A stretch of 9,626 bases of DNA, taken from the IMG/VR virus record IMGVR_UViG_3300014749_000041; one strand, written 5' to 3'. The translations under genes were made by a program, and so were the position numbers. Shown here piece after piece: positions 2,011-9,490 of the stretch (the first letter of the stretch is position 1; the number at the start of each line of letters is the position of its first letter). Source of the DNA: a virus. Its lineage: Duplodnaviria > Heunggongvirae > Uroviricota > Caudoviricetes. The notes under the pieces are model-generated. The model ran no database searches. It saw only the letters and a program-made list of their open reading frames with translations, and was not told the DNA's origin.

Positions 2011-2063
2011 GGGCGGCAGAGCAGTCACGGAGTAAAACTGATACCGCCAAACGTCACCAGAAA
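2011..2063 (-). ncRNA. dicF: DicF small regulatory RNA (ftsZ-targeting, Hfq-dependent sRNA)
   Basis: Reverse complement of 2011-2063 reads TTTCTGGTGACGTTTGGCGGTATCAGTTTTACTCCGTGACTGCTCTGCCGCCC, the 53-nt DicF sequence as I recall it, followed on the transcript by a U-run (TTTTTAAAGT). Sits between ydfC and dicB as in K-12. Confidence 0.8.
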
Positions 2064-3082: not shown

Positions 3083-3113
3083 AAAAGATAACTCATTGAT
3101 GATGTTATCTTTT
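3083..3113 (-). terminator. AT-rich hairpin overlapping the dicA stop codon (possible weak terminator or binding site)
   Basis: Inverted repeat AAAAGATAAC (3083-3092) / GTTATCTTTT (3104-3113) with 11-nt loop, followed on the dicA transcript by a short U-run. The stem is AU-rich, so termination efficiency is doubtful. Confidence 0.2.
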
Positions 3114-3512
3114 ATTTGTCCGCTGACGGGCTTTTAGTAATTCTTCAAAGAGTTTATTGAAGTTTTTTACTCGAGCTCGCATTTCGGCGAGCTGGGTATC
3201 CTGTTCTGATTCTGGCAGTGCATTAAACAGCTCAAGGAGCTCTAGTTCTTTGGGGGATAAGGCAACTGGCTTCTCAACAGGTGGTGTTGGTTGCTTGTCT
3301 TCATCGCCAAATAGAATCCATGTTGGTGAGCATTGCAATACTTTGCTGAGGGCAAAAAGGTTCTTCCCTGTAGGTTCACTATCACCCCGTTCCCATTGTG
3401 ATACAGACACATGGGAGATTTTCAGGGCTTTAGCAAGAGACCTTTGGGTGTGTTTGAGGTTTTTCCGACGATACCTGATGCGTTCGCCGATAGTTAAATT
3501 TTTTGTTTCCAT
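3105..3512 (-). CDS. dicA: DicA, HTH (XRE/cI-like) repressor of the dic division-inhibition operon
   Basis: 135-aa ORF METKNLTIGERIRYRRKNLKHTQRSLAKALKISHVSVSQWERGDSEPTGKNLFALSKVLQCSPTWILFGDEDK…; classic HTH_XRE signature (QxxLAxxLxxSxxxVSQWERG); divergent from dicC. Confidence 0.9.
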   Translation of the reverse strand: METKNLTIGERIRYRRKNLKHTQRSLAKALKISHVSVSQWERGDSEPTGKNLFALSKVLQCSPTWILFGDEDKQPTPPVEKPVALSPKELELLELFNALPESEQDTQLAEMRARVKNFNKLFEELLKARQRTNKR

Positions 3513-3595: not shown

Positions 3596-3826
3596 ATGCT
3601 TAAAACTGACGCTCTTTTGTATTTCGGTTCAAAAACAAAACTTGCACAAGCAGCAGGTATTCGTTTGGCTTCGCTTTATAGCTGGAAAGGGGATTTAGTT
3701 CCCGAAGGTCGCGCGATGCGTCTACAGGAGGCATCTGGCGGGGAGCTTCAGTATGATCCCAAAGTTTATGATGAATATCGTAAGACGAAGCGGGCGGGGC
3801 GTTTGAACAATGAAAATCACTCCTGA
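3596..3826 (+). CDS. dicC: DicC, Cro-like small regulator
   Basis: 76-aa ORF MLKTDALLYFGSKTKLAQAAGIRLASLYSWKGDLVPEGRAMRLQEASGGELQYDPKVYDEYRKTKRAGRLNNENHS, divergent from dicA; matches recalled DicC length and sequence. Confidence 0.85.
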   Translation: MLKTDALLYFGSKTKLAQAAGIRLASLYSWKGDLVPEGRAMRLQEASGGELQYDPKVYDEYRKTKRAGRLNNENHS

Positions 3827-4331
3827 ACAGGCTCGTGAGGCTCTGGATGCCTGGATATGTCGACCAGGAATGACACAGGAGCAGGCGACGATATTAATCA
3901 CTGAAGCATTCTGGGCTTTGAAAGAGCGCCCGAACATCGATGTTCAGCGTGTCACATATGAAGGTGGCGCGATTGATCAGCGAGCGCTTGGCGTTAATCG
4001 AGTGAAGATATTCGAACGCTGGAAGGCTATCGACACCAGGGATAAGCGTGAAAAGTTCACGGCGCTAGTGCCTGCAATTATGGAGGCTATCCGGATTAAT
4101 GATTTCAGGTTGTATCGTGAAATTACTGACGGAAAAAGCATCACGTGCATGATCGCCGGGTTAAACAAAGAATATGGCGATGTGGTGGAGTCCGGACTGC
4201 TTTTTGCTGATCCTGCCGTAGTGGATCGTGAAACTGACGAACTTATAGAAAAAGCAATTGCTTTCAAACTTGCGTATCGACAGCAATACCAACAAAAAGC
4301 TGGATGGAATTATGAGCCTTCTTTTTGCTGA
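3810..4331 (+). CDS. YdaT-family (CII-position) prophage regulatory protein, 173 aa
   Basis: ATG at 3810 overlaps the dicC 3' end by 17 nt. It occupies the cII position after the cro-like gene and loosely resembles Rac YdaT as I recall it (…WKAIDTRDKREKFTALVPAIMEAIR…). Family assignment is from memory and position only. Confidence 0.6.
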   Translation: MKITPEQAREALDAWICRPGMTQEQATILITEAFWALKERPNIDVQRVTYEGGAIDQRALGVNRVKIFERWKAIDTRDKREKFTALVPAIMEAIRINDFRLYREITDGKSITCMIAGLNKEYGDVVESGLLFADPAVVDRETDELIEKAIAFKLAYRQQYQQKAGWNYEPSFC

Positions 4332-5277
4332 ACGCCCACTGGTTATAAACACGCAGCTGGCAATGAAAATTGGCTTAAACGAAGCCATTGTTTTGCAACA
4401 ACTGCACTACTGGTTGAGAGATACCAACTCCGGCATGGAATGTGATGGTGTTCGCTGGATTTACAACACAACGGAACAATGGCTGGAACAGTTCCCATTC
4501 TGGTCAGAGTCAACGTTAAAGCGCGCGTTTGCAAGTCTGAAAACGCTGGGGCTTTTGCGTTGTGAAAAGCTCAATAAATCAAAGCGCGATATGACCAATT
4601 TCTACACGATCAACTATGGGAGCGAGCTTTTAGATGGTGGCAAATTGAGCGAATCCATCGGTTCAAAATGCGCCGCTCCATCAGGTCAAAATGACACGAT
4701 GGAAGAGGTCAAAATGAAACGCTCCATTGGTTCAAAACGACCCAATGTCATCGGGTCAAAATGGCCTGATGATCTTACAGAGAATACAACAGAGATTACT
4801 ACAGAGAATAAAAACACTTTTCGTCCGGAAGCTTCGCAACCGGACCCGCAGACGACTGAACAGGATTTTTTAACCCGGAACTCCGACGCGGTTGTGTTTA
4901 GTGCGAAAAAACGCCAGTGGGGTAGCAGGGAGGATTTGGCGTGTGCGCAGTGGATCTGGGGGCGGATCGTGGGTCTCTACGAACAGGCAGCCAGTGATGA
5001 TGGCGAGATCATGCGACCAAAAGAGCCTAACTGGACTGCCTGGGCCAATGACGTGCGCACAATGCGGATGCTGGATGGCAGAAGCCACAGACAAATTTGC
5101 GAAATGTTTGGTCGGGTTCAGCGAGATCCATTCTGGGTAAAAAACATCATGAGCCCGTCAAAGCTCCGCGAAAAATGGGACGAACTGGTCATCCGCCTGG
5201 GACGTTCACCTGTACAGCGTTGTGTTAATCATATTTCTGAACCGGATACAGAAATTCCGCCTGGTTTCAGAGGATAA
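4312..5277 (+). CDS. Phage replication initiator (O-like) with DnaT-like C-terminal domain; contains the origin iterons
   Basis: ATG at 4312 overlaps the preceding stop by 20 nt; the TTG at 4258 in the ORF track was not used. C-terminus …VNHISEPDTEIPPGFRG resembles the E. coli DnaT C-terminus (…VSEPDSQIPPGFRG) as recalled. The mid-gene linker is encoded by a direct-repeat array. Confidence 0.75.
   Translation: MSLLFAERPLVINTQLAMKIGLNEAIVLQQLHYWLRDTNSGMECDGVRWIYNTTEQWLEQFPFWSESTLKRAFASLKTLGLLRCEKLNKSKRDMTNFYTINYGSELLDGGKLSESIGSKCAAPSGQNDTMEEVKMKRSIGSKRPNVIGSKWPDDLTENTTEITTENKNTFRPEASQPDPQTTEQDFLTRNSDAVVFSAKKRQWGSREDLACAQWIWGRIVGLYEQAASDDGEIMRPKEPNWTAWANDVRTMRMLDGRSHRQICEMFGRVQRDPFWVKNIMSPSKLREKWDELVIRLGRSPVQRCVNHISEPDTEIPPGFRG
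4655..4765 (+). repeat. Iteron array (five direct repeats of about 11 bp, 22-24 bp spacing) - candidate replication origin
   Basis: Cores GGTTCAAAATG (4660-4670), GGTCAAAATGA (4684-4694), GGTCAAAATGA (4707-4717), GGTTCAAAACG (4729-4739), GGGTCAAAATG (4753-4763); spacing is close to two helical turns. Located inside the initiator gene as in ori-lambda. Confidence 0.65.
4777..4812 (+). repeat. Three tandem A-rich 12-mers next to the iterons (candidate DNA-unwinding element)
   Basis: ACAGAGAATACA (4777-4788), ACAGAGATTACT (4789-4800), ACAGAGAATAAA (4801-4812), immediately 3' of the iteron array. Confidence 0.5.
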
Positions 5278-5317
5278 GTGTTGATTTCAGGTCATGAGGT
5301 AATTTTAAGGGGGACTT

Positions 5318-5740
5318 GTGGCAAAAGTTTTTACACAAGAAGAGCGGGAAAAAATTAAATGGCAGGTGGTGGAACTCGTGCGCCAGAGCGGCCGTGAGAC
5401 GTTACGGCAACTGGAAGCTAAAACAGGTGCGACTAGATATCTGATGAGCGTTCTTGCCAGAGAGCGGGTAGCCAGTGGCGATGTATACAACTCCGGCTAC
5501 GGGTTATTCCCCTCTGAACAGGCGCGTAAGGACTGGCAAAACGCCCGCAAAAAACTCTCGAGGGCAAAGGTGAAGAAACCTGCTGTGGTTGATCCGGACC
5601 TTATCTGGTCATCACCTGACGGAGAAATACGTCGCTACGACAGTCGCCTAAACATAATCTGTCGCGAGTGCCGGAAGAGCGAAGTTATGCAGCGCATACT
5701 GGCTTTCTATCAGGGTAATTTTCAGGACGTGGCGCAGTGA
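5318..5740 (+). CDS. Ren-like protein (lambda Ren family), 140 aa
   Basis: GTG start at 5318 with AAGGGGG Shine-Dalgarno 4 nt upstream. C-terminal …ICRECRKSEVMQRILAFYQG resembles lambda Ren (…KECRQSAAMKRVLAVYGV…) as recalled; it follows the replication gene as ren follows O/P in lambda. Confidence 0.6.
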   Translation: MAKVFTQEEREKIKWQVVELVRQSGRETLRQLEAKTGATRYLMSVLARERVASGDVYNSGYGLFPSEQARKDWQNARKKLSRAKVKKPAVVDPDLIWSSPDGEIRRYDSRLNIICRECRKSEVMQRILAFYQGNFQDVAQ

Positions 5741-6093
5741 GTGCACCGGCAACCATTCTTGATATGTGCTGTGGCAGCCGCATGTTCTGGTTCGATAAGT
5801 CTGACGAACGGGCGATATTCAGCGATATCAGAAAAGAAGGATACACATTACGCAATGGGAGACGCTTGATTATCAGCCCTGACATTATCGCAGATTTTCG
5901 TGCATTATCATTTGCAGACGCATCTTTTTCGATGGTTGTATTAGACCCTCCGCATCTTGAGAGTGTTGGTGATAACGCCTGGATGGGAAAGAAATATGGA
6001 CGGCTGAATAAAGATGCCTGGCGTGATGATTCGCGACAGAGATTTAAAGAAGCCTTTCGGGTGTTGAGGCCGCACGGCGTTCTGATTTTTTAA
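5737..6093 (+). CDS. SAM-dependent amino-methyltransferase (DPPH motif), probably C-terminally truncated
   Basis: GTG start overlaps the upstream stop (GTGA). Motif I-like ILDMCCGSRMF, acidic beta-2 IFSDI, motif IV VVLDPPH and beta-5-like RVLRPHGVLIF are present. The ORF stops at TAA 6094-6096 but the same frame continues WNETQIPVSQILALTDRKPVICQRTGKKR. Confidence 0.55.
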   Translation: MSAPATILDMCCGSRMFWFDKSDERAIFSDIRKEGYTLRNGRRLIISPDIIADFRALSFADASFSMVVLDPPHLESVGDNAWMGKKYGRLNKDAWRDDSRQRFKEAFRVLRPHGVLIF

Positions 6094-6515
6094 TGGAATG
6101 AAACGCAAATACCGGTAAGCCAGATTCTGGCACTGACAGACAGAAAACCTGTTATCTGTCAACGAACAGGGAAAAAACGATAAAACCCACTGGATTATTT
6201 TTATGAAAGAGGCATCCAGTGAGTAGATTCGTAAGGCTACAGATACGTATATCTGAATAATTAAATTCAGTTCTGTAAATAAAATTTAATCCTTAACCGG
6301 ATGGATTTCTGCACCCTCAGAACATCAGGAGGCCGCCCGAAAGGGCGGTAGTGAAATGCGAAAGTTCAAAATTATTATTGAAACGGGAATAGCTGGTGGA
6401 GATTTTGAGGATGTATTCGAAGTGGACGATGACGCAACACCTGAGGAAATTCATGACGGAGCATAAGAAATTTTCTTTAACTACTGCAATTACTCATACC
6501 ACGAAATAAAAGACG

Positions 6516-6707
6516 ATGAGGAAGAACAAAGTGGCTGATTTTTGTTCAGCTAAATATAACATCAGTTTTGAAGAGCGGGATGAACTATTAATGGACTATG
6601 GTGAGTTACGCGGTGGAAGTGCTGCTGATGTCGAATCCTAGCGTGATGACTATGAAGCGGGAAAAACTCCGGTCGAAGCATATTGTGATGAGTGGGGCGA
6701 TGAATGA
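6516..6707 (+). pseudogene. Small ORF interrupted by an in-frame amber codon (TAG 6639-6641)
   Basis: MRKNKVADFCSAKYNISFEERDELLMDYGELRGGSAADVES-TAG-RDDYEAGKTPVEAYCDEWGDE-TGA; protein-like on both sides of the stop, weak ribosome-binding site. Confidence 0.25.
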
Positions 6708-6990
6708 GCGAGATTAATTATCAGGAAGGGCATGAAACGGCGGGGCAAGCAAAACCAGTGGCATGGCGATATCGCTACGTGAAAAAAGGCGTTACGGACT
6801 TTCAGGGGAAGTAGTGGTCTGGTGACTGGAAATATGTACCGAAAAAAGAGGATTGTAACGACAGGCCGAACTATCAAATTCAGGCCTTATTCACTGCCTC
6901 ACCAGTCCCAGTTACATCAGAAGAACTGGTTAAAGCTGTGCACTTTTATGAACAACTAAAACGCGAAAATCCACCAACATCCGGCAACTA
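6704..6990 (+). pseudogene. ORF of about 93 codons interrupted by an in-frame amber codon (TAG 6812-6814)
   Basis: MSEINYQEGHETAGQAKPVAWRYRYVKKGVTDFQGK-TAG-WSGDWKYVPKKEDCNDRPNYQIQALFTASPVPVTSEELVKAVHFYEQLKRENPPTSGN-TAG. The downstream 56 codons have no start codon of their own; GGGG SD-like element 7 nt upstream of the ATG. Confidence 0.3.
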
Positions 6991-7245
6991 GATTAATGGA
7001 TTAACTATGTCGGTTAAACGACCAGCCAACTGAAAAAGCGGAAACCTGATTACAGGTTGCCAGATAAGGCAATGAGCTACCTGGCGCGGAACGGACTGAT
7101 AAGTATGGGGAATGTTTTACGATGAACCTTTAGACTAAAGAGTTTGTAACGCTATGTAAGTGATTTTTTCTGGTTTAGATATTTATATGTCCGGCCAAAT
7201 TGAGGTGTGTTTAAATGTAATTGCACATTGATTGTAGGAGGAATA

Positions 7246-7425
7246 ATGAAAAACGCATTGCAGTTTTTGTTTGTTGCGTTCTGGTTGTTCGCATCATGTA
7301 TGCCCATCATCTTCACAGCAAGGTATATGGAAAAAGTTGATGTTTTGATATTAATATTTGGATATATAAATGCCCTTTTTTTAGGGGTGTTCATGGCGGT
7401 CATGTGCATTGAATACTGGCGGTAA
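7246..7425 (+). CDS. Small hydrophobic protein, two predicted transmembrane helices (59 aa), function unknown
   Basis: Consensus AGGAGG Shine-Dalgarno (7236-7241) 4 nt before the ATG; MKNALQFLFVAFWLFASCMPIIFTARYMEKVDVLILIFGYINALFLGVFMAVMCIEYWR has two hydrophobic segments; AT-rich codon usage unlike neighbours. Confidence 0.5.
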   Translation: MKNALQFLFVAFWLFASCMPIIFTARYMEKVDVLILIFGYINALFLGVFMAVMCIEYWR

Positions 7426-7480
7426 ATACAGCGAACTCCATTGGTTTAGTTGGATATTTACTGTGCTGGACAAAAACGGT

Positions 7481-7508
7481 TTGCGGGGAAATCTTAGTTA
7501 AGTAGAAT
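7481..7508 (+). promoter_or_regulatory. Candidate hok mRNA promoter
   Basis: -35 TTGCGG (7481-7486), 16-nt spacer, -10 TAGAAT (7503-7508). The implied start lies just before GGTGCTTGAGGCTATCTGCCTC, which resembles the 5' end of plasmid R1 hok mRNA (GGCGCUUGAGGCUUUCUGCCUC) as recalled. Confidence 0.3.
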
Positions 7509-7683
7509 GACTGCGGGTGCTTGAGGCTATCTGCCTCGGGCATGGACACCAACGGCAGATAGAGAAAAGCCCCAGTTAACATTACGCGTCCTGCAAGACG
7601 CTTAACATTAATCTGAGGCCAATTTCATGCTAGACACATGTAGGTTAGCCTCTTACGTGCCGAAAGGCAAGGAGAAGCAGGCT

Positions 7684-7725
7684 ATGAAGCAGCAAAAGGC
7701 GATGTTAATCGCCCTGATCGTCATC
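7684..7725 (+). CDS. hokD: Hok-family toxin (HokD/Gef-like), 5' fragment only - cut after codon 14 by the N-gap
   Basis: AAGGAG Shine-Dalgarno then ATG; MKQQKAMLIALIVI matches the HokD (RelF) N-terminus as recalled. The upstream leader resembles the hok/sok leader (GGTTAGCCTCTTAC…AAGGAGAAGCAGGCT ATG). The ORF is interrupted by N-run 7726-7735. Confidence 0.7.
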
Positions 7726-7735
7726 NNNNNNNNNN
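7726..7735. other. Run of 10 N (assembly/scaffold gap) inside the hok ORF
   Basis: Literal N characters; the 15-mer GGAGAAGCAGGCTAT occurs on both sides (7671-7685 and 7738-7752). Confidence 0.9.
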
Positions 7736-7752
7736 ACGGAGAAGCAGGCTAT

Positions 7753-9490
7753 TGTTAACACCAAGCTGTAATGTCCCCTTTGAACCATTCTAAAATGTCC
7801 CCAGACAATTCTCTGGGGGATTTTTCATGATCAAAGAGACTGTTACGATGAGTCATAAGGAACTCCACCGACTTCAGATTATTCAGGAACAAGCTGCGGC
7901 ACGCATTGGCATTTCTATTCGGCAGGTTAAACGTCTGGTGCAACGGTATAGAAATGAAGGGCCTTCTGGTCTGGTTTCCCACCGACGTGGAAAGCGTCCT
8001 AATAATTCCTTTTCTACTGAATTCAGAGCAACAGTAATTTCACTCCTCAAAGGCCGTTACGCTGATTTTGGACCTACGTTTGCGTGCGAAAAATTGCGCG
8101 AGATACACGGTTTATCTTTATCCGTTGAAACTCTCAGAAAGTGGATGATAGAAGAGGGGTTATGGCGTGAACGCCGTCGTAAAATTGCCCGTATATATCA
8201 ACGCCGCATGCGACGACCATCTTACGGTGAACTGATCCAGATTGATGGCTCACCTCATGACTGGTTTGAAAATCGAGGCCCCAGATGTACACTGATCGTT
8301 TTCATTGATGATGCCACCAGTGCGTTGATGGCGTTGCGTTTTGTGCCTGCTGAAACAACCCGGGCTTACATGGAAACCCTCCGGGGTTACCTTAATGATC
8401 ATGGCGTACCGCTCGCTCTCTACTCTGATAGACACAGTATATTCAGGGTAAATAACCCAGAGCGGGAAGGTGAGCTGACCCAGTTCACTCGTGCGATAAA
8501 GACACTGGGCATCGAGCCAATCCATGCCAACAGCCCGCAGGCAAAAGGGCGGGTAGAGCGCGCCAATCAGACACTACAGGACAGGCTGGTCAAAGAAATG
8601 CGGCTTCAGAATATCAGTGATATTGAAACAGCAAATGCATGGTTGCCGACCTTTATTGAAGCCTATAACAACCGGTTCGCTACGTCGCCTCGTACTACTG
8701 ATAATGCTCATCTTGATGTGCACCATTCTGAAGAGGAACTGGGTTATATCTTCAGCCTACAGGCGAAGCGCGTTCTGTCTAAAAATCTCACTTTCCAGTA
8801 CAAAAGCAGTGCGTTTCAGGTACGCAGTGAGGGCCGGGGATATCGACTTAGGCATTCGGTTGTTACTGTATGCGAGAACTTTGACGGTGAAATTAACGTT
8901 CTGTATGACGGGAAAGCGCTGGGCTGGGAAAAGTATGTTGATGGCCCGGAGCCTATACCACTGGATGATGAAAAGAGTGTCCATGAACGAGTGGATAATG
9001 CCCGTATTGATTTACGCTCAAAATACTATGTTAAACCTAAAGCTGACCATCCCTGGCTTACGCGCCGAACGCAAAGTCATCAGCAAGTTAAGCCCCCGAA
9101 GTTACCTAAAAAGAAGCCTGATCCCGATAAAAAAGATTGAAACCAAGATCGATTCGGTTGAGTGCATATCCATTCATAGGGTAGATTCTTAAGTCGCGTT
9201 TCTGGTGTTCATTTTCGGGTGGTTTGTTACTTGTTTTACCGGGGATATGCCAGAAACGCGCTGAGTCAGTCTGGGCGGTGCGCGTAATGAGGCGTTATGG
9301 TAAATAGCCTATGCTAATGTCCGCTAAGAGCAAGAAGCGGAAGTTGGCAGTTTTGTGGACTGTCCCCACAAAAGTGACTACAGAAATAGTTGCAATTCAT
9401 AATTGATCATGGGTTGTCAGTTAAACTCGTGGCGATTTAAATAGACTAATTGGGAGTGCGTCCATTACTTATATCTTGTAATGTTAACTA
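7753..9490 (+). mobile_element. Insertion-sequence-like element carrying the transposase (boundaries not resolved)
   Basis: Similarity to the hok region stops at 7752 and the next bases begin TGTTAACA…. A matching terminal inverted repeat was not found; only a weak TGTTAAC-like match near 9482-9489. Both ends are approximate and the element may extend beyond the window. Confidence 0.25.
7827..9140 (+). CDS. DDE transposase with integrase-core (rve-type) catalytic domain and N-terminal HTH; IS481/ISNCY-like
   Basis: 437-aa ORF with GGGGGA SD-like element 5 nt upstream. N-terminal HTH-like IGISIRQVKRLVQRY; catalytic candidates QIDGS, LYSDRHSIF and GRVERANQTLQ with D-(about 65)-D-(about 38)-E spacing; basic C-terminal tail. 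Family assignment is by motif only. Confidence 0.85.
   Translation: MIKETVTMSHKELHRLQIIQEQAAARIGISIRQVKRLVQRYRNEGPSGLVSHRRGKRPNNSFSTEFRATVISLLKGRYADFGPTFACEKLREIHGLSLSVETLRKWMIEEGLWRERRRKIARIYQRRMRRPSYGELIQIDGSPHDWFENRGPRCTLIVFIDDATSALMALRFVPAETTRAYMETLRGYLNDHGVPLALYSDRHSIFRVNNPEREGELTQFTRAIKTLGIEPIHANSPQAKGRVERANQTLQDRLVKEMRLQNISDIETANAWLPTFIEAYNNRFATSPRTTDNAHLDVHHSEEELGYIFSLQAKRVLSKNLTFQYKSSAFQVRSEGRGYRLRHSVVTVCENFDGEINVLYDGKALGWEKYVDGPEPIPLDDEKSVHERVDNARIDLRSKYYVKPKADHPWLTRRTQSHQQVKPPKLPKKKPDPDKKD

Follow-up and report, generated by a model that had tools for sequence, protein, structure and literature searches.

A conserved 59-residue reading frame upstream of hok in Qin-type prophages of Escherichia coli, and its probable identity as a small hairpin membrane protein

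We analyzed a stretch of 9,626 nucleotides (IMG/VR record IMGVR_UViG_3300014749_000041, a virus of the Caudoviricetes; hereafter the window), which is a Qin-type lambdoid prophage of Escherichia coli, and in it an open reading frame of 59 amino acids (ORF59) directly upstream of the toxin gene hok. Comparison with a second, deeply diverged lineage indicates that ORF59 is very probably a real gene under selection at the level of its protein, MKNALQFLFVAFWLFASCMPIIFTARYMEKVDVLILIFGYINALFLGVFMAVMCIEYWR. The explanation that best accounts for the evidence as a whole, to which we assign a probability of roughly 0.6, is that ORF59 is a Qin-type prophage hairpin inner-membrane protein acting through helix association. 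The family is new to curated libraries and of a familiar kind, the small prophage membrane protein.

A second lineage and selection on the protein

An exhaustive HMMER search against 1.84 billion representatives recovered, besides the lineage found in the window (lineage a), a second lineage (lineage b; P0101/P0106) whose protein, MRKILMYLCISIWIVISCVPIILTSEYLTEASIMALMFGHANALCIGVFISIIYIECWR, is likewise 59 amino acids long and aligns to lineage a without gaps at 41% identity (E=1.2e-8). Lineage b occurs in 1045 of 5426 complete E. coli genomes (LF82, EC958/ST131, ATCC 11775, and others), flanked on one side by ttcA with an integrase pseudogene and on the opposite side by uspF. The locus is a decayed prophage remnant of B2-type E. 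coli, and the ttcA site of K-12 holds Rac in its place. The lineage-b frame is intact in LF82 and other genomes despite the loss of the integrase, DUF1627 gene, and hok around it to pseudogenes. In LF82 this remnant occupies the Rac attachment site (NC_011993.1, 1421223-1423409), and apart from the lineage-b gene all of its content has decayed, the integrase, DUF1627 fragment, hok, and a metal ABC permease surviving as pseudogenes or remnants.

The two lineages share 59% nucleotide identity, distributed over first, second, and third codon positions as 35, 43, and 29 identities out of 60. The proportions of nonsynonymous and synonymous differences (pN 0.34, pS 0.72) correspond to a ratio of nonsynonymous to synonymous substitution rates (dN/dS) of about 0.19. 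No insertion or deletion separates the lineages over the 180 nucleotides of the frame, whereas the flanks can be aligned only with several gaps; the leader between the preceding gene and the ribosome-binding site (7126-7235) is alignable with the lineage-b locus in part, with several insertions and deletions. In a neutral simulation that placed the observed 73 mismatches at random in 200,000 trials, the frame stayed free of stop codons with a probability of 0.034, amino acid identity reached at least the observed value with a probability of 0.013, and both occurred together with a probability of 7e-4; when hydrophobicity also had to be kept, none of the 200,000 trials qualified. It is from the shared frame and length, the low dN/dS with no insertion or deletion, and this simulation that we infer protein-level selection on ORF59.

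The start codon at 7246 is the only one common to both lineages. Some annotation pipelines call a 72-amino-acid form with a GTG start; we rejected it, since in lineage b an in-frame stop lies 5 codons ahead of the shared ATG.

Close relatives of the window are numerous. A 305-nucleotide lineage-a segment was found in 1567 of the 5426 complete genomes, always with at least 95% identity, and also in sequenced temperate-phage genomes such as PhiR42_1. Lineage-a proteins in databases come from E. coli and Shigella only, under the names 'hypothetical protein' or 'membrane protein', and carriers across the two lineages include ATCC 8739, LF82, ST131/EC958, and ATCC 25922. In a sample of lineage-a copies anchored on an upstream 30-mer, and thus blind to ORF59 itself, the frame was intact in 111 of 113, a proportion expected anyway at such low divergence, so that close relatives are uninformative on this point. 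A preliminary description of this DNA, made from its letters alone, had named a frame not conserved among homologs as grounds for refutation; taken with dN/dS between the lineages and the neutral simulation, the homologs instead favor a gene.

K-12 MG1655 carries neither lineage, which probably explains why small-protein screens based on K-12 missed ORF59. In the Qin prophage of MG1655 (NC_000913.3), a deletion corresponding to approximately 4090-8950 of the window joins ydfX to ydfW, the genes that form its edges, and removes the O-like gene, the DUF977 gene, the methyltransferase gene, ORF59, the truncated hok, and most of the ISNCY element.

The preliminary description had called ORF59 an orphan that matched no protein known to it. 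This holds insofar as no described family was found: Pfam, NCBIfam, PHROGs, and PADLOC gave no match for either lineage (with E values up to 10 considered for Pfam, PHROGs, and NCBIfam), nor for the 72-amino-acid form or an 85-amino-acid antisense frame where these were included in the library searches. It does not hold insofar as a second lineage exists at 41% identity, with adjacency to hok kept in both. A third lineage was not found in species-representative genomes (with lineage-a peptide patterns), in phage records (tblastn), by distant blastn in E. coli, by profile search, or in a metagenome scan. One copy at 53% identity (L011) is decayed or error-ridden, with many insertions and deletions, and was left out of the evidence.

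Translation signals and base composition

The preliminary description was right about the ribosome-binding site and the base composition, although the start it gave for the element, 7150, takes in non-coding DNA. The Shine-Dalgarno sequence is the only AGGAGG in the window positioned ahead of a start codon, and it is unpaired in both the minimum free energy and the centroid structure predicted for the mRNA. The fold of the ORF59 mRNA is no more stable than that of shuffled sequences (z=-0.65). A common allele at position 7239 (A>G, 73 of 195 sampled copies) changes AGGAGG to AGGGGG, which could pair with the anti-Shine-Dalgarno sequence through G-U wobble.

As the preliminary description had noted, the region is richer in A and T than its surroundings, with a GC content of 0.345-0.38 across 7100-7499 compared to 0.43-0.51 in the flanks. 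Within ORF59, GC content is 34% at first, 28% at second, and 50% at third codon positions. Because the low values fall on the first two positions and not on the third, they carry the signature of a hydrophobic coding sequence, and the low GC content of ORF59 reflects this coding pattern, not foreign DNA.

The 85-amino-acid frame on the opposite strand was rejected as a gene, since lineage b has no conserved counterpart, its longest antisense frame spanning 27-33 amino acids. This shadow of ORF59 is annotated in the phage records ON470612 and ON470619 as 'hornerin' and in PV340562 as a hypothetical protein.

Predicted structure and proposed function

Two hydrophobic segments, as the preliminary description had proposed, are supported both by hydropathy (residues ~4-25 and 33-55, flanking the charged loop RYMEKVD; grand average of hydropathy 1.27) and by AlphaFold2, which predicts helices at residues 3-24 and 31-58 (predicted local distance difference test score, 82.6). 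Across both lineages 22 residues are invariant: M1, L5, L8, W13, S17, C18, P20, I21, I22, T24, Y27, L36, F38, G39, N42, A43, L44, F49, I55, E56, W58, and R59. In the second helix, G39 and A43 of a ladder of small residues are invariant and G47 is present in all sequences but one; the helix is followed by a conserved tail, I55-E56-x-W58-R59. Buried asparagines and ladders of small residues spaced by three others favor tight helix-helix association in membrane proteins; the invariant N42, located mid-membrane, and the G39/A43/G47 ladder therefore suggest that the protein associates with itself or docks on a different membrane protein. The invariant S-C-x-P-I-I block of the first helix is likewise of a kind seen in tightly packing helices. 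A Foldseek search with the AlphaFold2 hairpin against the PDB returned meaningless matches only (E>6).

On these features ORF59 is likely to be a 59-residue integral inner-membrane helical hairpin, most plausibly with both termini in the cytoplasm and a short periplasmic loop of acidic or mixed character. Since no promoter or terminator was detected around it and it is oriented with the early-right genes, ORF59 would probably be made from the early-right transcript (dicC to the O-like gene to the nin region) after induction, and its exposed consensus Shine-Dalgarno sequence should allow efficient translation. The protein may then associate with itself or dock on another membrane protein, altering the activity of that partner or the permeability of the membrane in phage-host conflict. 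Exclusion, abortive infection, and timing of membrane damage together with Hok are candidate roles. We hold this conflict role through helix-helix association only tentatively, and Hok as the specific partner is doubtful.

Known exclusion and immunity proteins (T4 Imm, HK97 gp15, P22 SieA and SieB, Rac SieB) resemble ORF59 in being short and hydrophobic with one to few helices, encoded outside the structural genes, narrow in taxonomic range, and fast evolving. A role of this kind that benefits the host would fit the survival of lineage b in a decayed remnant. Unlike a recognizable member of these groups, however, ORF59 has no sequence or profile similarity to exclusion or defense proteins in PHROGs or PADLOC, for either lineage.

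ORF59 also resembles phage morons in forming a discrete mosaic module of lower GC content between genes that are otherwise separated by something else. The module extends over approximately 7126-7468. The genes to its left vary among related prophages, each of them ending at 7125; on its right, hok loci without ORF59 (933W hokW, Rac-SA53, HannyBb, PPompW) share sequence with the window only from 7469 or later. ORF59 departs from morons in that a plus-strand scan of low sensitivity between 6700 and 7800 detected neither a promoter nor a terminator for it, and its low GC content stems from amino acid composition.

Alternative explanations

The match of residues 8-18 (LFVAFWLFASC), with K2 as a charged n-region, to the PROSITE-type lipobox pattern raises the alternative that ORF59 is a lipoprotein precursor, with a signal peptide at residues 1-17, cleavage by signal peptidase II before Cys18, and a 42-residue lipidated product anchored additionally by the second helix. 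The invariance of Ser17 and Cys18 speaks for such processing, as does the fact that the residues at -3 and -2 are permitted ones in both lineages (F-A/V in lineage a, V-I in lineage b). We nevertheless consider it unlikely: the hydrophobic run continues for 7 residues past the cysteine (MPIIFTA) and reads as one 22-residue helix, with which the sequence is no less compatible, just ~14 residues lie between the cysteine and the second helix, and a C-terminal membrane helix is unusual for a lipoprotein. The known lipoprotein with such a helix is the unimolecular spanin, which needs a long periplasmic domain.

ORF59 could instead be a membrane-damaging toxin or pore former, resembling type I toxins, viroporins, or pinholins, that collapses the membrane potential. 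Its small size, strong hydrophobicity, two helices, and glycine-zipper-like ladder with a buried asparagine would suit this activity, and its gene adjoins that of a membrane toxin. Hok/Gef and other type I toxins are likewise shorter than 60 amino acids, hydrophobic, and targeted to the membrane. ORF59 differs from them in having two helices rather than the single one of most type I toxins, and it shows no similarity to Hok. Its Shine-Dalgarno sequence is exposed, no leader control or mok-like coupling frame was detected, and Rfam, searched at the gathering threshold and at E<=1, returned sok and DicF only, with nothing over ORF59 (7126-7470), a search that a novel antisense RNA could escape. 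A type-I-toxin-like role is weakened by the exposed Shine-Dalgarno sequence and the lack of a detected antisense RNA. The persistence of lineage b in a decayed remnant with no visible antitoxin, and the lack of a match to any holin or toxin family, also make a toxin or pore former rather improbable.

The pinholin form of this alternative, which the preliminary description had put forward, fails on several counts. Pinholins and class II holins such as phage 21 S21-68 do share with ORF59 a length of ~60-75 amino acids, two membrane helices, and an origin in lambdoid phages. ORF59, though, lies upstream of Q, ~5.5 kb from the antiterminator ydfT in a complete relative (L001), between replication and nin-type genes and hok, with the lysis genes more than 5 kb downstream; the preliminary description had itself remarked that no lysis cassette was near. 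The tail after the second helix, EYWR, has 4 residues and a net charge of 0 and is not basic. No dual start is present, as the single N-terminal methionine is followed by K2 and only M1 is shared with lineage b. The first helix is strongly hydrophobic, compared to the weakly hydrophobic, Gly/Ala-rich releasable helix of pinholins, and no holin family in Pfam, PHROGs, or NCBIfam matches.

A further alternative ties ORF59 to hok/sok as an accessory, either because the protein modulates Hok or because transcription and translation running through into the hok promoter set hok expression. In both lineages, deep as their divergence is, ORF59 immediately precedes hok and shares its strand, and the order of the two genes therefore predates the split between them. 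In lineage b, a hok remnant begins ~55 nucleotides after the frame (53 of 66 identities to codons 23-45 of hokD, E=7e-14), the leader and 5' half of hok being gone. The hok/sok leader of the window starts 90 nucleotides past the ORF59 stop codon, which places ORF59 outside the hok transcript. Also in favor of a link, ~58% of 120 hok-bearing prophage contigs from IMG/VR carry one of three unrelated small hydrophobic frames ending 42-90 nucleotides before the start of the hok mRNA.

Against an accessory role, hok loci with unrelated upstream neighbors and no such frame exist, so that the link to Hok is not obligatory. ORF59 is also intact where hok has been destroyed, both by the deletion in lineage b and in the prophage type of the window, in which ISNCY cuts hok at its start codon (65 of 195 sampled copies, or about one third). 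The adjacency may moreover reflect nothing but shared ancestry of a block of DNA. We consider an accessory role quite improbable, and assign the same low standing to a broader proposal, that prophage hok/sok loci have a third element, a tiny same-strand membrane protein directly upstream of the hok promoter, which is filled by three apparently unrelated families and modulates Hok damage or gates the hok promoter. Under that proposal ORF59 would be the largest and most conserved example, the others being a 27-amino-acid peptide translationally coupled to the preceding gene, as in 933W, and a peptide of 29-30 amino acids.

The 120 contigs comprise ~20 with ORF59, 27 with the 27-amino-acid type, 23 with the type of 29-30 amino acids, and 46 with none of the three. 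The 27-amino-acid frame (MTWPEAF..VG..MAV.LVVYSICRW[GR]) ends at the hok -35 region. In 933W it lies between L0139 and hokW, where it is unannotated (1422-1505 of L220), and it is also found in L225, L232, L237, L248, L262, L303, and L320. Its ATG overlaps the stop codon of the preceding gene (ATGA), whichever gene that is, and it travels with hok, the sequence upstream being unrelated between contexts. All 28 copies are intact, forming 13 haplotypes with 15 synonymous and 21 nonsynonymous changes. We rejected this frame as a truncated ORF59, as no homology could be demonstrated (hhalign probability 0.3%; local DNA alignment similar to shuffled sequences, p about 0.3). The third frame, of 29-30 amino acids (VLVLKC.LAI.AVMAIYCL.IVLMD.LSD), has an AGGAG Shine-Dalgarno sequence and a GTG start just upstream of the hok promoter (1389-1478 of L222 from HannyBb; also L224 and L233).

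Several observations weigh against a functional gene. All 16 polymorphisms of ORF59 within lineages are nonsynonymous (12 in lineage a, 4 in lineage b); with ~20% of sites synonymous, the chance of finding no synonymous change among 16 is ~3%. This excess may come from sampling, from diversifying selection, or from constraint on synonymous sites, and, unlike the comparison between lineages, it is not the usual signature of purifying selection. Frameshift alleles at a T7 tract recur (P0019, P0022, P0024, P0025), a deletion of one T being found in 2 of 195 copies, and further alleles are truncated or diverge abruptly after residue 40-41 (P0026, P0027, P0029; L349, L350; ~7366-7370), which suggests insertions or deletions at the AT-rich TATATAAAT site. 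Because such disrupted alleles exist, the gene is dispensable. The length of the frame is by itself not significant, since an ATG-initiated frame of at least 59 codons arises in 17% of dinucleotide shuffles of the 375-nucleotide region (on both strands, 0.9%), and the evidence beyond chance is comparative. That evidence amounts to one deep comparison, as the family consists of two lineages in E. coli and Shigella only.

Other results on the same side concern annotation and expression. The RefSeq annotation pipeline PGAP annotates neither lineage in complete genomes. Neither peptide was found in the papers searched for peptide strings, which likewise yielded no expression evidence, or in the supplements of a small-gene study of O157 Sakai, a strain not shown to carry ORF59. 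No sigma-70 promoter, including one active in the lysogen, and no plus-strand terminator was detected between 6700 and 7800 by a consensus scan that is insensitive and misses the known hok and sok promoters too.

Polymorphism at non-singleton sites is sparser in the frame than beside it, with 7 sites in the 180 nucleotides of ORF59 compared to 15 in 156 nucleotides of flanks in lineage a, and the same trend in lineage b. The common lineage-a alleles M37 and H40 match lineage b and are probably ancestral.

A frame that is open by chance within the AT-rich spacer 5' of hok, with copies that are recent descendants of one mobile segment, could accommodate the near-identity of all lineage-a copies, the length reached by shuffling, the nonsynonymous polymorphisms, and the lack of a PGAP call, yet we regard this as very improbable given that lineage b keeps the start, stop, length, and hydrophobic pattern at its nucleotide divergence, that dN/dS and the neutral simulation (P<1e-3) argue for selection, and that the frame has a consensus Shine-Dalgarno sequence, low GC content at the first two codon positions only, and an antisense frame that is not conserved.

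Prophage context

As the preliminary description had stated, ORF59 lies between a decayed region and the hok locus (Table 1). The gene order of the window recurs identically in complete genomes and in temperate phage PhiR42_1. Related prophages hold an intact version of the decayed gene upstream of ORF59, the 3' end of which can also be recognized 5' of the lineage-b frame. The -35-like and -10 elements listed for hok are our reading of the sequence from known hok/sok anatomy.

Table 1. Features of the window, with ORF59 and its parts listed first. Strands are given as + or -.
Feature	Position	Strand	Details
ORF59 coding sequence (lineage a)	7246-7425	+	ATG at 7246; TAA ends at 7425 (stop included); 59 amino acids
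Shine-Dalgarno sequence	7236-7241	+	AGGAGG, consensus; 4 nucleotides ahead of the ATG
Putative hydrophobic helix 1 (residues 4-25)	7255-7320	+	Invariant block S17-C18-x-P20-I21-I22-x-T24
Short charged loop (residues 26-32)	7321-7341	+	RYMEKVD in lineage a, EYLTEAS in lineage b; Y27 invariant
Putative hydrophobic helix 2 (residues 33-55)	7342-7410	+	G39-x3-A43-x3-G47 small-residue ladder, invariant N42
T7 homopolymer in ORF59	7376-7382	+	Site of recurrent frameshift alleles (55-amino-acid variants)
Antisense 'shadow' frame, 85 amino acids	7152-7409	-	
AT-rich intergenic leader	7126-7235	+	Between the stop of the decayed gene and the ribosome-binding site
Spacer of the ORF59 module	7426-7468	+	Homology to hokW-type loci without ORF59 begins only at ~7469
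Putative hok promoter region, neighbor of ORF59	7469-7514	+	-35-like TTGCGG, -10 TAGAAT
hok mRNA leader with sok antisense region	7515-7689	+	Rfam RF01794, 114 bits, E=4.5e-26; hok ATG at 7685
Decayed upstream gene	6704-7125	+	Frameshifted, internal stop; TGA stop at 7123-7125
ydfE, ydfD, dicB		-	In the window
DicF RNA	2011-2062	-	Rfam
ydfC, then dicA	3105-3512 (dicA)	-	
dicC	3596-3826	+	
YdaT-like, O-like replication, DUF977, and methyltransferase genes, then decayed small genes	After dicC, up to 7125	+	
ISNCY-family transposase	7827-9140		3' of the hok/sok leader

The start of hok in the window (7670-7760) resembles an assembly join, with 42 bases of hok coding sequence, a run of ten Ns (7727-7736), and a repeated 'acggagaagcaggctat', after which the ISNCY element follows. 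Complete genomes (L001) have ISNCY immediately adjacent to the hok start codon. A second copy of hokD, located downstream of relBE, matches the 56 bases at 7670-7725 with 100% identity. Another run of Ns (~486-500, XXXX in translations) falls within a ydfE-like gene at 477-1403 on the minus strand.

Implications

Exclusion, toxicity, and lysis-timing functions often trace to small membrane proteins of prophages, and hok encodes a classic membrane toxin whose part in prophage biology is still under study. The reference annotation appears to lack a conserved gene for such a protein, found as lineage a in 1567 and as lineage b in 1045 of the 5426 complete E. coli genomes. A functional link to Hok would make ORF59 an added component of a textbook toxin-antitoxin module; without one, ORF59 would be one more uncharacterized accessory gene of lambdoid prophages.

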